DNA of 64,000 bases, taken from a virus. The notes below the pieces were generated by a model that worked only from the letters and a program-made list of their open reading frames with translations, had not been told where the DNA came from and did not search any database. The position numbers and the translations under genes are program-made. Shown here piece by piece: positions 7,596 through 62,407 of this stretch; the stretch's first letter is position 1, and each line of letters begins with the position of its first letter. The DNA is taken from positions 35,058 through 99,057 of IMG/VR virus record IMGVR_UViG_3300045988_051354. The stretch is one strand, 5' to 3'.

Positions 7596-8604
7596 ACAAT
7601 TCGTAGTATGCTACCATACGTAACAACTTAGTAAACTCTAAGAATCCTTCTTTCATATGGCCATTAGTAACTGGGTATACTCCAGACCTGAAATCAGGAA
7701 CTGTAGATACTACCAGCATATTAGCCTTTAAAGAAGGTTTGACCTTATATGTGTTCTCAATATACAGTTTAAGCATCCACATATACATAGCCATTTGTCT
7801 AGCATAATGATACTTATCAAAACTCTCGCCAAACTTAGTAAGATAATGCCCACTTGTCTTTAAGTCATTGAGTGTTAACTCATCGCTATCAGGACAGTAT
7901 GTGAAATTATCAAGTTTAGCTTTAAGTTTTAATACTTTATTCTTGCCACCATGTTCTACTAACACAGACATTAATAAGGCTGCTTCATTAGCTATAACAG
8001 GTTCTGCAAATAAACCTTCTGGTTTTAGTAATGACTGTATTTGCTTATTGCATTCAACTGATGTGAGACATTCTCGTAGCTTGTCTCTAGACTTGGGATC
8101 TAAATAAATAGGAACCTTATCGGCAACATATTTACTTCCCCATTCATAGGCTGTACGCTGAGCATAGTAGTCTTCGCATTTAATACGTAGAGCTTCCATC
8201 TTATCAGCATCCATTTTACCCTTATAATAGCTAATTTTATTTGATGCTGCTATAATTTCGTCAGCAGTAACAACATGAGTAGCTACAAATGTAGGATATA
8301 ATTCATCCGCCATGAATCCAGCTTTAGCTGTAGGTCTATTAACTGTTTCTACAAGAATAAATGATTCTGGTTGCAGTATTAATTCATGCACTGCTGAACC
8401 AAAATACAGTGAGTCAGAATACCTAGAGTCCGCTTCTAAACCAGCTTTATACAAAGCAGGACTTCCACCCTGCTCTGGATTTATTAGCTTCAATCTAGAG
8501 TTACTGATGTAATCAGAATAAGCATCCCCGAAGTATTCTTCATCACTTATGTCTAAATATTCTATGGTTTCAATTAGTGGTGTTATTTTAATTTCCTCAA
8601 GCAT
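7567..8604 (-). CDS. PD-(D/E)xK-family nuclease-like protein (recombination-exonuclease-like)
   Basis: 345 aa. GSAVHELIL ... ANMLVVSTV...K resembles the RecB/Cas4/YqaJ core. Assigned by motif only. Confidence 0.4.
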   Translation of the reverse strand: MLEEIKITPLIETIEYLDISDEEYFGDAYSDYISNSRLKLINPEQGGSPALYKAGLEADSRYSDSLYFGSAVHELILQPESFILVETVNRPTAKAGFMADELYPTFVATHVVTADEIIAASNKISYYKGKMDADKMEALRIKCEDYYAQRTAYEWGSKYVADKVPIYLDPKSRDKLRECLTSVECNKQIQSLLKPEGLFAEPVIANEAALLMSVLVEHGGKNKVLKLKAKLDNFTYCPDSDELTLNDLKTSGHYLTKFGESFDKYHYARQMAMYMWMLKLYIENTYKVKPSLKANMLVVSTVPDFRSGVYPVTNGHMKEGFLEFTKLLRMVAYYELYGYDADGIL

Positions 8605-49612: not shown

Positions 49613-49615
49613 AAG

Positions 49616-49687
49616 TGCTCCATACAGGATTCAAACCTGTGACACGTAGGTTTAGGGTCTACTGTTCTATCGCTGAACTAATGGAGC
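49616..49687 (-). tRNA. candidate suppressor tRNA, anticodon CUA (reads UAG), with C33 and an A31-C39 mismatch
   Basis: GCTCCAT-TA-GTTC-AGCGATA-GAAC-A-GTAGA-CCCTAAA-CCTAC-GTGTC-ACAGG-TTTGAAT-CCTGT-ATGGAGC-A. The acceptor, D-arm and T-arm are perfect. The anticodon triplet CUA sits at 34-36 of a 7-nt loop. Confidence 0.5.
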
Positions 49688-51403: not shown

Positions 51404-51651
51404 AAATCACACAATCCATATTAACTGATGAATTGTGAGTGCAAAGATAAGTAATCCTTCTCACATATAAAAGTTAATATGTATTAAATACAACATGGGG
51501 AAATTTAATTGGATATAGACTTACTATCTTCACAGACTGTAAGCCTTTATGACCATTTCCAATAGTTGCTGTTTTAAGTAGTAATGGCAATGACACAGAT
51601 GCAACTATCGGAAATTCTTTATGAGTAATTTAAAACTACAGTAATAATAGT

Positions 51652-51719
51652 CAGCTAGGTGGGATTCGAACCCACACCACTTACAAATTATGTAAGTCTT
51701 CTAACTTAAATTACTAGCC
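51652..51719 (-). tRNA. degenerate tRNA-like element (no D-arm; odd anticodon hairpin CTTAC-ATAATTT-GTAAG)
   Basis: Acceptor GGCTAG(T)/CTAGCTG is imperfect. T-arm GTGGG-TTCGAAT-CCCAC is perfect. Probably a pseudogene or a non-canonical tRNA. Confidence 0.3.
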
Positions 51720-51828
51720 TTACCGCTCACAGGCATCATTCAAATAAATCCCATCTAATAGATTAGATATGTAATTAGACTGTCTTTGATTTGTAATGCA
51801 CTTCTAATTACATAAGGAATTTAATCTT

Positions 51829-53547: not shown

Positions 53548-53908
53548 CTTGTAAAATTAAATTAGCAGGTTAATCTGAGAGTTCTTTATTCTAATTGATA
53601 AAATGGGACACATAGACATTGAGCCAGCTTAATACAACTCGCTACTTACACACTACATGCCCCATATCAAATGAGGAAAGAGGTTCACTTGATGACCTAT
53701 CTACGTGCTGATTATAACGTAGACCGTGCAGATTCTCTCTCACACAATACTATGATGGACTCAAACCATCTCCACCCCTAGGTGAACTTTCCGTTATTCG
53801 AATAGTACAGGTTTCAACTCTTTATAACGCCTTTAAGTCAAAGTATACTCCGGAATATACTCTTAGTTCATCAGACCAAGTTTGCGCTTAGAATTATCTA
53901 AGATTAAG

Positions 53909-54607
53909 TTACCCTATTAAATATGCAATTTGTAAATCTACGGATGTCCCGTTGTCTTCTAGAGTAACCGTTGTGGATATTGTTTCCAGTTGACCATTAT
54001 TAACGATAGCACTTCTAATCTCATGTGGAGACTCAATGTGCAAATAGCCTTTACCGTCCCAAGCAGGTATATAACCTCCTCTCAAGATATTCTTGGAGGG
54101 AATGCTCTTATAGTAGAAGTCAGCTGTTCTATAATGTGCGAATGATACAGTGATTGGAACATCAGAAAGGTTGCCTATAGTAAAACCTCCCAATACAGTT
54201 GCCAATTTAGTAACCTTCTCAACATAAGAAGTTCTGCCAACTACTTGCAAAGAAATCTTCAAGCCTGGAGCGTAAAACTGCTTAACTCTGGAATTAATAT
54301 CCTTTAGTGTTTGAAGTGATTGCAGTTCTGAGATGTCAATATAATCCTTCTCAGATTCTTCATCGCCAAATACACAAGCTACCGAGATTGGCAGGCTTTC
54401 ATTTATAAAGTCTGTAATCCTAGCAATTGCTTTGGTTGTGATTGGCTCATTTCCCATTCTAATTCTATTCGTAGCATATAAGATATGCGCTACAATATCT
54501 TGTAAGGGAAGTGATTGATTCTCTTTAGCGAAATTGCTGTCCATATCATATAGATACTGACAGATGTGCACCCCAAATTGGGATTGACTACTAATTGTTA
54601 ATTTCAT
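53909..54607 (-). CDS. hypothetical protein
   Basis: 232 aa. Confidence 0.5.
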   Translation of the reverse strand: MKLTISSQSQFGVHICQYLYDMDSNFAKENQSLPLQDIVAHILYATNRIRMGNEPITTKAIARITDFINESLPISVACVFGDEESEKDYIDISELQSLQTLKDINSRVKQFYAPGLKISLQVVGRTSYVEKVTKLATVLGGFTIGNLSDVPITVSFAHYRTADFYYKSIPSKNILRGGYIPAWDGKGYLHIESPHEIRSAIVNNGQLETISTTVTLEDNGTSVDLQIAYLIG

Positions 54608-55404
54608 AAACTTGCTATCTTCATATACATATTAAACCATGCTTCAGTAGTGTCCTTGGGCTCTTCCCAAGTTGCAGCTCTTCTTTTAAGTCTTACTATG
54701 AACTTAGTAAAAGGAATACCAAGTCTTGTACGTGCTTTCATCCAACCAGTACTGTGGTCTCTAGCATATACAGATTGAGTTCCTAATACTTCCGAGATTA
54801 ATGACAATTCATCCATCATAGCCTCTCCTAATTCTAACTGGGTTTCGTTAATTAATAACTTACCGTTAGAGAATGCAGTATTTAAAGATGCTCTTGTCCT
54901 ACCTCCAGAAAGAAGACTTAAGCCAGCTTGTACCATATACTCACCATTACGAATAAATATAGATGGATATTTATCCATAAACTGTTTTAGTATCATATAC
55001 GGTTCTTTCTTCTCATATACATAAGACATAAGTTTGTCATGTGCCTTCCATCTATTCTGAGTATTATTAATGAGACGGGCAGTTTCTAATGCAGATTCGT
55101 CGGCATAGAAGTATACTCTTAACGTAAATGGAATATTCCTTTTAAGACATTCCAAAGCAGCTGCAAGTCTGTGATTACCTTCAGTTACAAACCTGAAAGG
55201 AGTTGATACTAGAATAGGAGGAATATAATCCTTGTTTTGATAAGCTTTTACTAAGTCCTCAACCTTCTTAGGTTTGATTTCTCTGTTTCCGGGTAAGAAC
55301 CTCAAAGCCTCGATAACCTTTCGGTTATCATTAGTAAGAACATAAACGTTCTCTGTGGTAACTCCATTTAGAAGTTTACCAAAATCAATGTTACCTCTTT
55401 CCAT
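54604..55404 (-). CDS. ParB-like nuclease-domain protein
   Basis: ILVSTPFRFVTEGNHRLAAAL matches the ParB N-terminal catalytic core (..dG.HRl.AA..). Confidence 0.55.
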   Translation of the reverse strand: MERGNIDFGKLLNGVTTENVYVLTNDNRKVIEALRFLPGNREIKPKKVEDLVKAYQNKDYIPPILVSTPFRFVTEGNHRLAAALECLKRNIPFTLRVYFYADESALETARLINNTQNRWKAHDKLMSYVYEKKEPYMILKQFMDKYPSIFIRNGEYMVQAGLSLLSGGRTRASLNTAFSNGKLLINETQLELGEAMMDELSLISEVLGTQSVYARDHSTGWMKARTRLGIPFTKFIVRLKRRAATWEEPKDTTEAWFNMYMKIASL

Positions 55405-55431
55405 GTCAAAGTGATTTAATTAGTTAATAAG

Positions 55432-55470
55432 TGGACCATCGCGGACTCGAACCGCGGTCTTCACAACTCT
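55432..55470 (-). tRNA. orphan tRNA 3' fragment (T-arm CGCGG-TTCGAGT-CCGCG + acceptor 3' ATGGTCC-A)
   Basis: No complementary 5' acceptor lies within 100 nt. The nearest candidate is GGGCCAT at 56039, beyond about 600 nt of ORF-free sequence. Confidence 0.35.
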
Positions 55471-56166
55471 AAATAATAAGATTACGTGTGTCTCTATTTT
55501 ATTACATCAGCTGTTGAGTTCAGCATGTAGACAGTTTTATTAGTCTTATCCTGGAACCAGGTAATTAGGCTGTAATAGCCAAACCAGTACGCCAAAAGCT
55601 AATTTACAAACTACCAAACTTAAAGGTTCAGAAGCTGACGCTTCCAAACCTGGACTGACCGAAGTCGTCCCTCCACCACTCCATTTACGTTGGAGAACGT
55701 TTCTATTTGTAACCCATAGATAGGCAGTGGAGATTTCAGCTCTACTAACCTTTGGCTTTCAAGTTAATGCATCTAAGCTTCACTGTAACCTATAGGTACT
55801 ATGATTCTTCCCCGAAGGTCTCGTTATAACACTTAGATACAAACCTCTTCTGTTTCTAGGTCTCCCCATTAACCCGACTTAATCAATATGATATCGATAA
55901 GCCACAGCTTAAGCTGCCATTCTTACTTCAGTGTTGCCACTTGAAATTTGTGTATCATTTTATAAGAGTTGGTACGAACTCTACACGTCTTACTACCCAG
56001 TCATCATGAATCAATTCCATGTATGGCCCATAGTAGCATGATTATACTCTCATGCCAGGAGTGGGAAACAACCCAAAGCTTTCAGTATCCTCCTGTGCCA
56101 CTGGCGTACCCATTTCAGACTTAAAAGCTTATCAATGAATGAAAAAATGAATAGCACTGCAGAATG

Positions 56167-56403
56167 TTAACGGAAGAACTCTTTAAGCAACTCACATTGC
56201 TCATTCATGAACTTCCGTCTAACACTAGCACTATTAAAAGAAATAAAATGATAATCGAATCGAGATGTTATTGGAATTATATTGTTACCACATCTAGTGA
56301 CGCAGTATTTATAAGTTCCATCCTCCCAGTCAGGTTTCCAACCTTCGTTGTACATATCAAGAGCAGTCATTACTGCATTGAATATTTCGGCATGTGACAT
56401 CAA
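56167..56403 (-). CDS. hypothetical small protein
   Basis: 78 aa. Confidence 0.4.
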   Translation of the reverse strand: MMSHAEIFNAVMTALDMYNEGWKPDWEDGTYKYCVTRCGNNIIPITSRFDYHFISFNSASVRRKFMNEQCELLKEFFR

Positions 56404-56741
56404 AACGGGTATTGTACGTTAGATTGTTTACGCATCCAGCTATATACTATAATCTCTGGTTGTATATCCTTAATAAGTTCAATGCAGGATTCATAAGACA
56501 TCGAAGTGGTTATTACAGAAGGATACTTAGAAGTATATACCCATTCCTCAATAACTTGTTTCATGTCTATATGCTCATCATAAGGCCATTTAAGCTCTGC
56601 TTCAATATTGTCTCTAATACGTTCTAGAGACACATAGAGCCTAATACCATACACATTAGTAATAAGGAACTTAAGCAGCTCCTTGTTAAATTTGTCTACA
56701 TCACATATAAGGATGTGAGAACCTTCTATAACTTTATGCAT
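56400..56741 (-). CDS. hypothetical protein
   Basis: 113 aa. Confidence 0.45.
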   Translation of the reverse strand: MHKVIEGSHILICDVDKFNKELLKFLITNVYGIRLYVSLERIRDNIEAELKWPYDEHIDMKQVIEEWVYTSKYPSVITTSMSYESCIELIKDIQPEIIVYSWMRKQSNVQYPF

Positions 56742-56817
56742 AGTTAATAAATAAGAGAGGCAGAGTGTTTCACAACATGTCTGCCTTAGATTTGTAACAT
56801 ATTATTCAGTCATTAGA

Positions 56818-57423
56818 TTAGAGTCCATGTTTAGCCTTGAATAAAGTATCAAATACTTCTCTTAGTTCGGATACCGCTTCTGGAGCTTCAATACCGAGTT
56901 CTTTCATCTTATTCTTAATGACGTCCTCACGGAAGTTCTTGGTCTCATCCATTGCCTTCTCCAAAGCTTTGTCAAACGTATCCGGATCCAATTTCTTTAA
57001 GAGTTTAAGTATATCAATGCCTGATTTCTCAGTAATATCATTCATTCCAAAGTGTTCCTTATAGGCATCTATACTTGCATCCAGTCTGTCAAATGCCTTT
57101 ACTAACATGGCAGCGTCTTCTTCAGTAATATCAAAACCGCCATTCTTGTCAGTAAGTTCAGGGCTTTGGATACAAGGAGGCTCACTCATTTCCAGACAGA
57201 ATACAGGCTCGTTATCCTCTCTAAGGATATATACCGTATGTTTGGTATCTTTTGTGATACCTTCTCCTACTCCCCATGAAATACCTTCCTTGAATGATTC
57301 TACTTCATCAAGAGCTCTAGCCATATGAGATTTAATTTCTCCTATAACTTCCTCATAGTTGCGTTTAGGAGTTTCATCCACTTGAGGTCTTTCTGACGCT
57401 AAAATTTCTTCTAATGTTCTCAT
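56818..57423 (-). CDS. hypothetical acidic protein
   Basis: 201 aa, D/E-rich. Confidence 0.5.
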   Translation of the reverse strand: MRTLEEILASERPQVDETPKRNYEEVIGEIKSHMARALDEVESFKEGISWGVGEGITKDTKHTVYILREDNEPVFCLEMSEPPCIQSPELTDKNGGFDITEEDAAMLVKAFDRLDASIDAYKEHFGMNDITEKSGIDILKLLKKLDPDTFDKALEKAMDETKNFREDVIKNKMKELGIEAPEAVSELREVFDTLFKAKHGL

Positions 57424-60647: not shown

Positions 60648-60912
60648 CTTACCTATACGTTGTGAGGTTCTAATTGTTAGTGACTAATTAGTTTCAGCTT
60701 GTTTAGCTTACTTATAGCATCGCCACGTAAAGGCTTAGTCATGATGCCGCTCCCATCACGGGAGAATGAATAATTTTAACTTACTGTATTTATTAATTTA
60801 AATTCAAACAATTTCATCTTCCTGTGCCACTATACTTTGAGTTGTTATCACAACAACTACATAGTCTCAGGGCGTACCCATTATGATGATGCTAATAAAG
60901 AAATAAAAATAT

Positions 60913-60987
60913 GTGAACCAGAGTAGATTCGAACTACTAACCTTTCTCTAGATGAGAATGTTCTTCCGGAAATTGAACTACTGGTTC
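60913..60987 (-). tRNA. tRNA-like element with non-canonical anticodon arm
   Basis: GAACCAG-TA-GTTC-[11-nt loop]-GAAC-A-TTCTC-ATCTA-GAGAA-AGGTT-AGTAG-TTCGAAT-CTACT-CTGGTTC-A. The acceptor, D-arm and T-arm are perfect. The anticodon arm is 5 bp with a 5-nt loop, or 4 bp with a 7-nt loop CATCTAG. Confidence 0.4.
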
Positions 60988-62407
60988 TAGCCCAAGCCTA
61001 TTTCACAACAAACTTGGGTTAAAGTAAATAACAACTTTATATATTATGATACACTTATTTGCATTTTACACCTAAAACTTAGAATCTTGCATGCAACTGC
61101 AATCTATTACATTTGTCTGACAAGGACAAACAACTAAGAAACTGGTGCCCTCAATGTCTTGGGATGTTATTGAGTTTTTTAAAAGTCCTTATAATCCTCT
61201 CTTTTAAGATAACTTAGAACTTTAGGTCTAGACTTGTACTTCGTCTATCCAAGTTTGTACTGTGCGAATACTTCGGATTATAGAGTGTATAGCACAATCC
61301 TCTAAAGTTTAGAGTATACACAATCTTTTGGGACTTTGTTATACTATTCTTGCCCAGGGAGTAGCGTAAACCGTCATATTAAACCGACATGTATCAATCC
61401 ACGGCCCCTTGATACTGGATCTACATTATTAGTAACGAATATAGTGCCTGTCTTTCCAGGCTGTCACCAAACTTATAAATCGGAATTGGTTTCCTGTACG
61501 GTTTATCCTTAAACTTTTAAGTGCGTTACTAGTAAACCGCCTAAAAGATACAGCACTACTGGTTTAAACTACCCTACCAGCAAGTAAAGCTCGTCTTTCC
61601 GAGCCGCCATGCTATCCCTTGTGTCACAGTACTCGCAACATACCATAACAGAACGTTCCTTTAGCCGATTACCCACACACCCCTACGTACAATGGTGGAA
61701 CGCAGCTTTCGCTACGATTAACAACTCTAGCTTTCTTCCCCTTCTTGGTTCTCCGTCATTACGGTTTGTATTATTGAAAGCGTGGAGGAATGGTCCTCAC
61801 ATTACTACTTAAAGCAATGTGGTTTTACCATTATTTACTCACAAATACATTTTCTTTGTGAGTCTATCATAGCTCTTGTACGCATTACTCGGCAGAGGAG
61901 CCTTACCGAAACCTACAATGTAGGACGCTGTTTAAAACTTAAAAATTAATATAATTAAAACAATCATGTGGACTCCTGCTTTAACGCATGAAGCAGGAAC
62001 GTTTAACTTTTGGCACTACATACATTATGTCCGTTTTGTGATGTAGGGATTCTAAGTATTTGCAACTACTCAGAAGAGCTAAACCAGGTTGCCTATCCTT
62101 TACAGCGATAGGCGTTCTGTTTATTTATAACTGCATCCAACAATTACCATGCCAAGCAAATTCTGCATCACCGATTCTCATTCTCCACTCAGAACCATCA
62201 TCAGTATAGAATTCATATTGTCTTCTGAAAGCTTCTTCACTTGAAATTGTTGTTGTATGTCCGTCTGACCAAATTATCTTATCCATAATTGTATATGTAA
62301 CTAACCTTTACGTTACGAGGTTTTAAATTGTTAATCAGACTCCTGCATATAGCAGAAGTTTCGTCCAGTCTCATCAGTGATTATTTTATAGACTCCTGGT
62401 TGTCTTA

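Follow-up and report, generated by a model that had tools for sequence, protein, structure and literature searches.

A minus-strand gene at 55432..56029 of the 64-kb stretch of phage DNA analysed here (the window) is almost certainly a member of the tmRNA family. We put at roughly 85% the probability that it specifies an active, phage-borne, one-piece rescue RNA that works as proposed below. The gene escapes both ARAGORN and Rfam at its gathering score, and its identity is established by an end-to-end covariance-model alignment, by higher-scoring relatives, and by a helix map in which the tmRNA landmarks are conserved or covary (Table 1).

Identity and core of the tmRNA gene

The gene occupies most of an interval that the original prediction had described as an ORF-free, GC-enriched stretch and a candidate large structured RNA, and each of these three descriptions was borne out. 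No ORF of at least 60 aa is present on either strand; the biggest overlapping ORF is 51 aa, and the gap without such ORFs is exactly 55405-56163 (759 bp). It ranks fourth by size in the window, and the bigger ORF-free gaps contain tRNA genes. The GC content is 40.3% compared with a window mean of 36.3% (z = 2.0), and 3.4% of equally long windows have at least 40.3%; the enrichment is real and modest. The fold of the 598-nt RNA has a z score of −5.4 relative to shuffled sequences, none of 100 shuffles being as good. Even without constraints, the acceptor stem, helix 2, the T arm, and the helix 5 hairpins all appear in the minimum-energy fold. A long-range helix of that fold (274-286/431-443) is not conserved in other types and was dropped. 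The gene lies within a run of 26 same-strand tRNA genes. ARAGORN lists 25 tRNAs in the window; a tRNA additional to that list, at 51651-51720 (−), was matched by Rfam with 42.7 bits.

A permissive Rfam scan of 54500-57000 aligned 55429-56029 (−) with the tmRNA model RF00023 from end to end (model positions 1-374, 45.0 bits, E = 4.9e-16), with a single insertion of 174 nt. The score is 2 bits short of the gathering score of 47, and when the whole window was scanned with Rfam in gathering mode, tmRNA was absent from the output. ARAGORN found no tmRNA in the window, relaxed settings included, and detected none of 11 tested phage family members.

Scanning IMG/VR and metagenome contigs for sequence patterns yielded 34 distinct homologs of 501 to 630 nt. 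The labelled ones are all from human gut. The largest contig carrying a homolog is 337 kb, and many are 165 to 186 kb. In 29 distinct sequences the tRNA-like domain is identical to that of the window while other modules differ, which points to purifying selection on this type of domain. The other five (L271, L262, L226, L219, and L291) came from a scan of viral contigs with a 14-base leader pattern, the other matches of which were mostly chance. These five are 71 to 81% identical to the window copy over nearly full length, and their tRNA-like domain, which contains UUUGAC and GGAC, is closer to the canonical form. RF00023 scores are 91.1 bits for L291, 84.1 for L219, 84.0 for L271, and 83.7 for L226. 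Because homologs with the canonical domain pass the gathering score, the family is assigned to tmRNA, and the window copy falls below that score because its tRNA-like domain has drifted. The earlier statement that no tmRNA signature could be recognized is therefore overturned.

Within the tRNA-like domain, the T stem-loop (55456-55440), the acceptor 3′ strand (55439-55433), and the discriminator A (55432) had been read as an orphan T arm and acceptor. These elements are real, on the minus strand, but they form the 3′ end of the tmRNA gene and are not orphaned. A GGGCCAT placed at 56039 had been proposed as the 5′ acceptor strand; it does pair at seven of seven positions, but its true place is 56029-56023, 10 bases away. 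The pairing GGGCCAU/AUGGUCC includes a G:U at position 3, which is present in 34 of 34 sequences. This G3:U70 is the alanine identity pair. The 5′ strand is invariant in the 29 sequences, and the five divergent relatives have GGGCCUA/UAGGUCC, with pairs 6 and 7 changed on both sides and G3:U70 kept. The T stem exists in three covarying versions (CGCGG/CCGCG, GGCGG/CCGCC, and GAGGG/CCCUC), and the T loop UUCGAGU fits the UUCRANY pattern. The anticodon arm is absent, with helix 2 in its place. CCA is not encoded, the bases after the discriminator being CUU. UUCGAC (5′) and GGAC (3′) are near-universal SmpB-contact motifs of the tRNA-like domain; the window type has AAUUGAU (UUGAU) and AGAC instead, so binding by host SmpB is not assured.

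Pairing was assessed by pair counts in the 29-sequence alignment, in which 96.3% of all cells are paired, compared with 34 to 46% when partners are slid. Helix 2, an interrupted helix of 26 pairs, joins the tRNA-like domain to the body. One of its pairs is U-A in 16 sequences, U-G in 7, and C-G in 6; another is G-U in 23 and A-U in 6. In pseudoknot 1, the middle pair of the second stem is U-A in 20 sequences and C-G in 9, both sides having changed. Most of the remaining core pairs are invariant and uninformative on pairing either way.

The tag reading frame agrees with the Rfam alignment. Three tag alleles occur in the 34 sequences (GNTEVRMAA, GNTTYRMAA, and AEIDYNRMAA), and the frame, the UAA stop, and the RMAA end are common to all of them. 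The first Gly codon (GGC/GGA) and the last Ala codon (GCU/GCG/GCC) vary only synonymously. These changes are weak coding evidence by themselves because both codons overlap hairpins: the Gly codon lies in a conserved GNRA-type hairpin (AGUG-GNAA-CACU), so that the GGC/GGA change fits a GNRA tetraloop equally well, and the last Ala codon lies inside a hairpin loop. The stronger argument for coding is that unrelated codon strings have a frame and a stop in common. In H5b, the second hairpin of helix 5, two pairs are changed on both sides, and the hairpin resembles helix 5 of host tmRNAs.

The departure of the window-type tRNA-like domain from the SmpB-contact motifs, with the low Rfam score that results, and the great enlargement of the body could also mark a tmRNA-derived decoy or inhibitor. 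Such an RNA would bind SmpB, AlaRS, or ribosomes without completing trans-translation and would damp host rescue and tagging; a precedent is the tag-less tmRNA-like RNA reported for mycobacteriophage DS6A. A decoy would not need pseudoknot 1 and helix 5, which are kept and covary, and the tag frame, its fixed stop, and its fixed RMAA end have been retained in three alleles and 34 sequences. We consider this explanation unlikely and favor a functional rescue RNA.

Table 1. Features of the tmRNA gene and its surroundings (window coordinates)
Feature	Position	Strand	Description	Evidence or relation
ParB-like ORF	54604-55404	minus		borders the interval
tmRNA (ssrA) gene	55432..56029	minus	one-piece, 598 nt, G1 to discriminator A	Rfam, helix map, fold
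T arm and acceptor 3′ strand	55432..55456	minus	CGCGG UUCGAGU CCGCG, then AUGGUCC and discriminator A	
Helix 2, 3′ strand	55460..55489	minus		
Domain C	55503..55615	minus	GGUAGUUU/AAACUGUC encloses swappable hairpins (55615-55530); then invariant hairpin UACAUGCUG..CAGCUGAUGUA	
Hairpin and optional hairpin	55624..55670	minus	GGACGAC-UUCG-GUCAGUCC, then optional hairpin (55651-55624)	
Domain B (almost invariant)	55671..55732	minus	CUCCAC/GUGGAG encloses hairpin CUAU..AUAG and a predicted H-type pseudoknot	
Domain A	55762..55874	minus	GGUUAA/UUAACU encloses invariant-loop AGAAACAGAAG hairpin and a swappable hairpin	
Helix 5 (H5a, H5b)	55878..55917	minus	H5a GCAGC-UUAA-GCUGU (UAA in loop), then H5b CUUAUCGAU..AUUGAUUAAG	
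Tag reading frame	55909..55938	minus	GGC AAC ACU GAA GUA AGA AUG GCA GCU UAA = GNTEVRMAA + stop	
Pseudoknot 1	55952..55982	minus	stem AGAGUU/AACUCU; loop GUA with downstream UAC	
Helix 2, 5′ strand	55983..56010	minus	sub-helices H2a-H2d	pairs with 55489-55460
Acceptor stem, 5′ strand	56023..56029	minus	GGGCCAU, carries G3 of G3:U70	pairs 7/7 with 55439-55433
Structured 5′ leader (conserved)	56030..56130	minus	~100 nt	covarying helices
78-aa ORF	56167-56403	minus		borders the interval on the other side
tRNA genes with anticodon CUA	49615-49687, 60913-60987	minus	amber suppressors; ARAGORN label Pyl	

Enlarged body, T-loop intron, and leader

The segment from helix 5 to the 3′ strand of helix 2 is 388 nt in the phage RNA, compared with about 200 nt in hosts, an excess of some 190 to 200 nt. 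The region of domain A is treated as the 174-nt insertion in the Rfam alignment. The swappable hairpin of domain A has 11 bp in the window and gives way to hairpins of unrelated sequence in other relatives, and its closing helix has a possible alternative pairing, UAACUU/AGGUUA. In domain B, only wobble changes are seen in the outer helix (C-G in 19 and U-G in 9 sequences at one pair, A-U in 28 and G-U in 1 at another). The inner H-type pseudoknot (ACGU/ACGU, with loop CUCCA pairing with UGGAG) is invariant, and because it never varies it is predicted rather than proven. One pair of the domain C closing helix is G-C in 15 sequences, G-U in 11, and A-U in 3. For the canonical ring of pseudoknots PK2 to PK4, expected between helix 5 and the 3′ strand of helix 2, no one-to-one mapping onto the helices of the phage body was found; that body resolves into one predicted, invariant H-type pseudoknot and several closed domains. 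The optional hairpin that follows the UUCG hairpin is absent from most relatives. It was the sole terminator-like match in a terminator scan, and as an optional internal hairpin (55651-55624) it was rejected as the transcription terminator. In L050, at 630 nt the longest member, this hairpin is tandemly duplicated (alignment A2 columns 553-612).

A group I intron was found in the tmRNA gene of a relative (L021/L013; IMGVR_UViG_3300045988_023864, 182 kb). This gene is 97% identical to the window copy and is interrupted by about 862 bp (L021 7754-8615) after the second U of the T-loop (GGUU|UGAU...UUUG|CGAGUCC). As is usual for such introns, a U stands at position −1 and the last intron base is G; the first 238 nt match the Rfam group I intron model (RF00028) with 94.4 bits. 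It carries an ORF of 194 aa (7955-8539) on the opposite strand, after P9; PHROGs assigns it as an endonuclease, and it has no Pfam match. The window copy has no such intron, without a group I match at E ≤ 10. According to PMC11915505, known tmRNA introns are all in the T-loop, and subsite 3 is reported there only from the class Bacteroidia. If the subsite numbering is as we understand it, the L021 intron occupies subsite 3, but in a phage gene rather than a bacterial one. A T-loop group I intron in so close a relative is behavior expected of a genuine tmRNA gene.

Since Rfam aligns the body with a single 174-nt insertion, and since introns are known to target tmRNA genes, that of one relative included, the extra ~200 nt might be an unrecognized intervening sequence (an intron or mobile insertion) whose removal leaves a tmRNA of ordinary size. 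The window copy matches no group I or group II model at E ≤ 10, and the T-loop, where the relative's intron and all known tmRNA introns (PMC11915505) are located, lies elsewhere. Moreover, the block of the RNA that is conserved best (A2 columns 436-532) falls within the inserted region, this region is present in 34 of 34 members, none of which is shorter than 501 nt, and the length differences among relatives come from discrete hairpin swaps. These observations make an intervening sequence very unlikely.

A large ornate RNA of the GOLLD or ROOL kind, or an ORF-less intron inside a tRNA, was the reading offered by the original prediction. The stretch is long, ORF-free, structured, and adjacent to tRNA genes, but this reading is hardly tenable: the Rfam scan suggested there as a check matched no GOLLD, ROOL, HEARO, or group I/II intron model on either strand of 54500-57000 at E ≤ 10 and matched tmRNA instead, no anticodon arm is present, and what connects the two halves is a set of tmRNA landmarks, namely helix 2, pseudoknot 1, and the tag frame.

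The leader occurs in a single copy in the window and adjoins the tmRNA in every locus examined. It consists of a long hairpin closed by AAGCUUUU/GAAAGCUU, a variable hairpin, and a last hairpin, UGGCAUGA..UCAUGCUA, which ends at 56034, 4 nt before G1. The closing helix exists in four covarying versions (AAGCUUUU/GAAAGCUU, AGGCUAUU/GAUAGCUU, AAGUUACU/GGUGAUUU, and AAGCUGCC/GGCUGCUA, the last with two mismatches). RNAalifold independently recovered the closing helix with a 4-bp extension, as well as a hairpin of 8 bp that stops 4 nt short of G1; 6 pairs of this structure are changed on both sides. An AGGAG in the leader is complementary both to upstream sequence and to a downstream CUCCU, so that two folds are possible, and sequence variation among the relatives favors neither. 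The leader is absent upstream of host ssrA genes, and the permissive scan of 54500-57000 matched no Rfam family to it. The simplest guess is that it acts as a processing or stability signal or as a regulator of the precursor.

Two other readings of the leader were rejected. A small protein gene (ATG at 56112; MGTPVAQEDT..., 23 codons) has 12 N-terminal codons that look conserved, but it is read as non-coding because single-base indels in close relatives shift its frame and length (14 to 38 aa) and because its variable codons are exactly those that covary with the upstream strand. A TATAAT sits in a hairpin loop and is GATAAT or TTTAAT in relatives; it was not accepted as a promoter, and a scan for sigma-70 promoters found none. 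In L291, an inserted ORF of 81 aa (2517-2759, −) separates the tmRNA from the leader's 5′ half; the stop codon of this ORF abuts G1. This ORF has no family match and was found in no other locus examined.

Host tmRNAs, other phages, and genomic context

The native Bacteroides tag is GETNYALAA (bioRxiv 10.1101/2025.03.18.644028). A degenerate scan for this tag returned at least 120 genomes, nearly all Bacteroidota. Eight host tmRNAs from the scan are 396 to 401 nt long and score 134 to 166 bits, and ARAGORN found all six that were tested, with the tag GETNYALAA (one read as ETNYALAA). Phage and host RNAs were compared by motifs identified by eye, direct MAFFT alignment being misleading at the 5′ end. 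The Bacteroidales tmRNAs (for example those of Bacteroides faecis, B. heparinolyticus, and Prevotella) have in common with the phage RNA the one-piece form, G3:U70, the T arm, helix 2, pseudoknot 1, a GGC (Gly) resume codon, and a tag of nine codons with AA at its end; helix 5 is also similar (CUUAAUCGAAUCACAGUAGAUUAG in the host, CUUAUCGAUAUCAUAUUGAUUAAG in the phage). They differ from it in size and score (598 nt and 45 bits in the window) and in the tag, which ends in ALAA in hosts and in RMAA in all three phage alleles. Domains A and B and the structured leader are extra in the phage, and the window-type tRNA-like domain, unlike that of the hosts, is without UUCGAC and GGAC. Where the phage has its leader, host ssrA genes have a TATCTTTG-like motif, which we take to be the Bacteroides promoter type.

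The phage helicase (DnaB) is nearest, at about 30% identity, to those of crAss-like phages of Bacteroides (Crassvirales). Given this affinity and the common GGC codon, nine-codon tag, and helix 5, the phage gene most likely descends from a Bacteroidales ssrA. Among the relatives, the types of leader and of tRNA-like domain are found in shuffled combinations with one another and with the tag alleles and hairpin modules, a pattern that points to recombination between co-circulating phages.

Phage-encoded tmRNAs are known from huge phages and from mycobacteriophages (Al-Shayeb et al. 2020, PMC7162821; the tmRNA database, PMC11915505). In those phages, too, a tmRNA gene accompanies many tRNA genes in a large genome, and it is presumed to sustain or manipulate ribosome rescue. 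They were found by ARAGORN or Rfam, whereas the present family is invisible to ARAGORN, belongs to a relative of crAss-like phages, has an RNA of 501 to 630 nt, and carries a conserved leader. GOLLD and ROOL RNAs are likewise large, ORF-free, structured, and located near phage tRNA genes, but the architecture here is that of a tmRNA. No paper treating tmRNA together with Crassvirales was found in the literature searched, and the GenBank phage collection contains only two fragments of the family, both unannotated. What is new is the carrier, a length 100 to 230 nt above that of host tmRNAs, the drifted tRNA-like domain of most family members, the structured leader, and the invisibility to ARAGORN.

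Other non-coding elements were observed in the same genome. A RAGATH-34 RNA (53804-53901, −; 86.9 bits) lies about 1.5 to 2 kb downstream of the tmRNA, and RAGATH-34 is also found near the tmRNA in L219 (3252-3359), L291 (324-430), and L271 (8530-8616). The same spacing in the window and these three relatives indicates that the two RNAs are syntenic. A RAGATH-1 hammerhead ribozyme was matched at 62333-62406 (−; 82.6 bits). Within the ORF-free gap 60648-61608, positions 61136-61590 are 84 to 95% identical to unannotated intergenic DNA of Crassvirales cr53_1, cr10_1, and cr55_1, despite a helicase identity of only about 30%. This segment has no Rfam match at E ≤ 0.1 and resembles a non-coding element that is either mobile or under strong conservation.

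Proposed function and significance

In the tmRNA cycle, the 5′ end is made by RNase P and the RNA, once charged by AlaRS, is brought to stalled ribosomes by EF-Tu and SmpB (PMC3985003). By analogy, host RNase P would cut the phage precursor at G1 and free the folded ~100-nt leader. The 3′ trailer would be trimmed and CCA, since it is not encoded, would be added, after which host AlaRS would charge the RNA with alanine. A validated SmpB query detected no such gene in the window or the examined flanks. With host SmpB and EF-Tu, the RNA would enter ribosomes stalled on broken or stop-less mRNAs. Translation would resume on the GGC at 55938-55936, add (A)GNTEVRMAA, and end at the UAA at 55911-55909, freeing the ribosome.

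The phage would gain a rescue RNA that is independent of host transcription during infection, when mRNA damage would multiply non-stop complexes. A possible reason for keeping its own copy is that the last four residues of the tag are unlike the host degron and are held constant. Read-through by the two tRNA(CUA) suppressors may add to the need for rescue. This link to suppression is conjecture, because the ORFs of the window read normally under the standard code and give no sign of TAG recoding.

A further and rather doubtful suggestion is that the enlarged body and the covarying leader are together phage-specific working parts and not neutral expansions. The leader may switch between its two folds, with AGGAG paired upstream or with CUCCU, and may thereby gate maturation of the rescue RNA in response to conditions in the infected cell. 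Trans-translation may be retargeted by the invariant domain B and the RMAA end, either by recruiting a phage factor or by marking rescued chains for a fate unlike that conferred by the ALAA degron, and retargeted trans-translation may be coupled to the amber-suppressor tRNAs of the phage.

Neither ARAGORN, which phage pipelines use, nor Rfam at its gathering score detects a tmRNA here, and an entire family of rescue RNAs in phages has therefore probably escaped annotation. One-piece, intron-less forms reach 501 to 630 nt in this family, above the 500-bp size cut-off that was part of the filter excluding all non-intron forms in PMC11915505.

The family provides natural examples of a tmRNA body and a tRNA-like domain that have drifted while the core was kept, and it offers an uncharacterized element in its structured leader. 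In the human gut, relatives of crAss-like phages rank with the most abundant viruses. The invariant RMAA end of the tag can be searched for in metaproteomes, and the T-loop intron of L021 hints that introns may move between the ssrA genes of host and phage.
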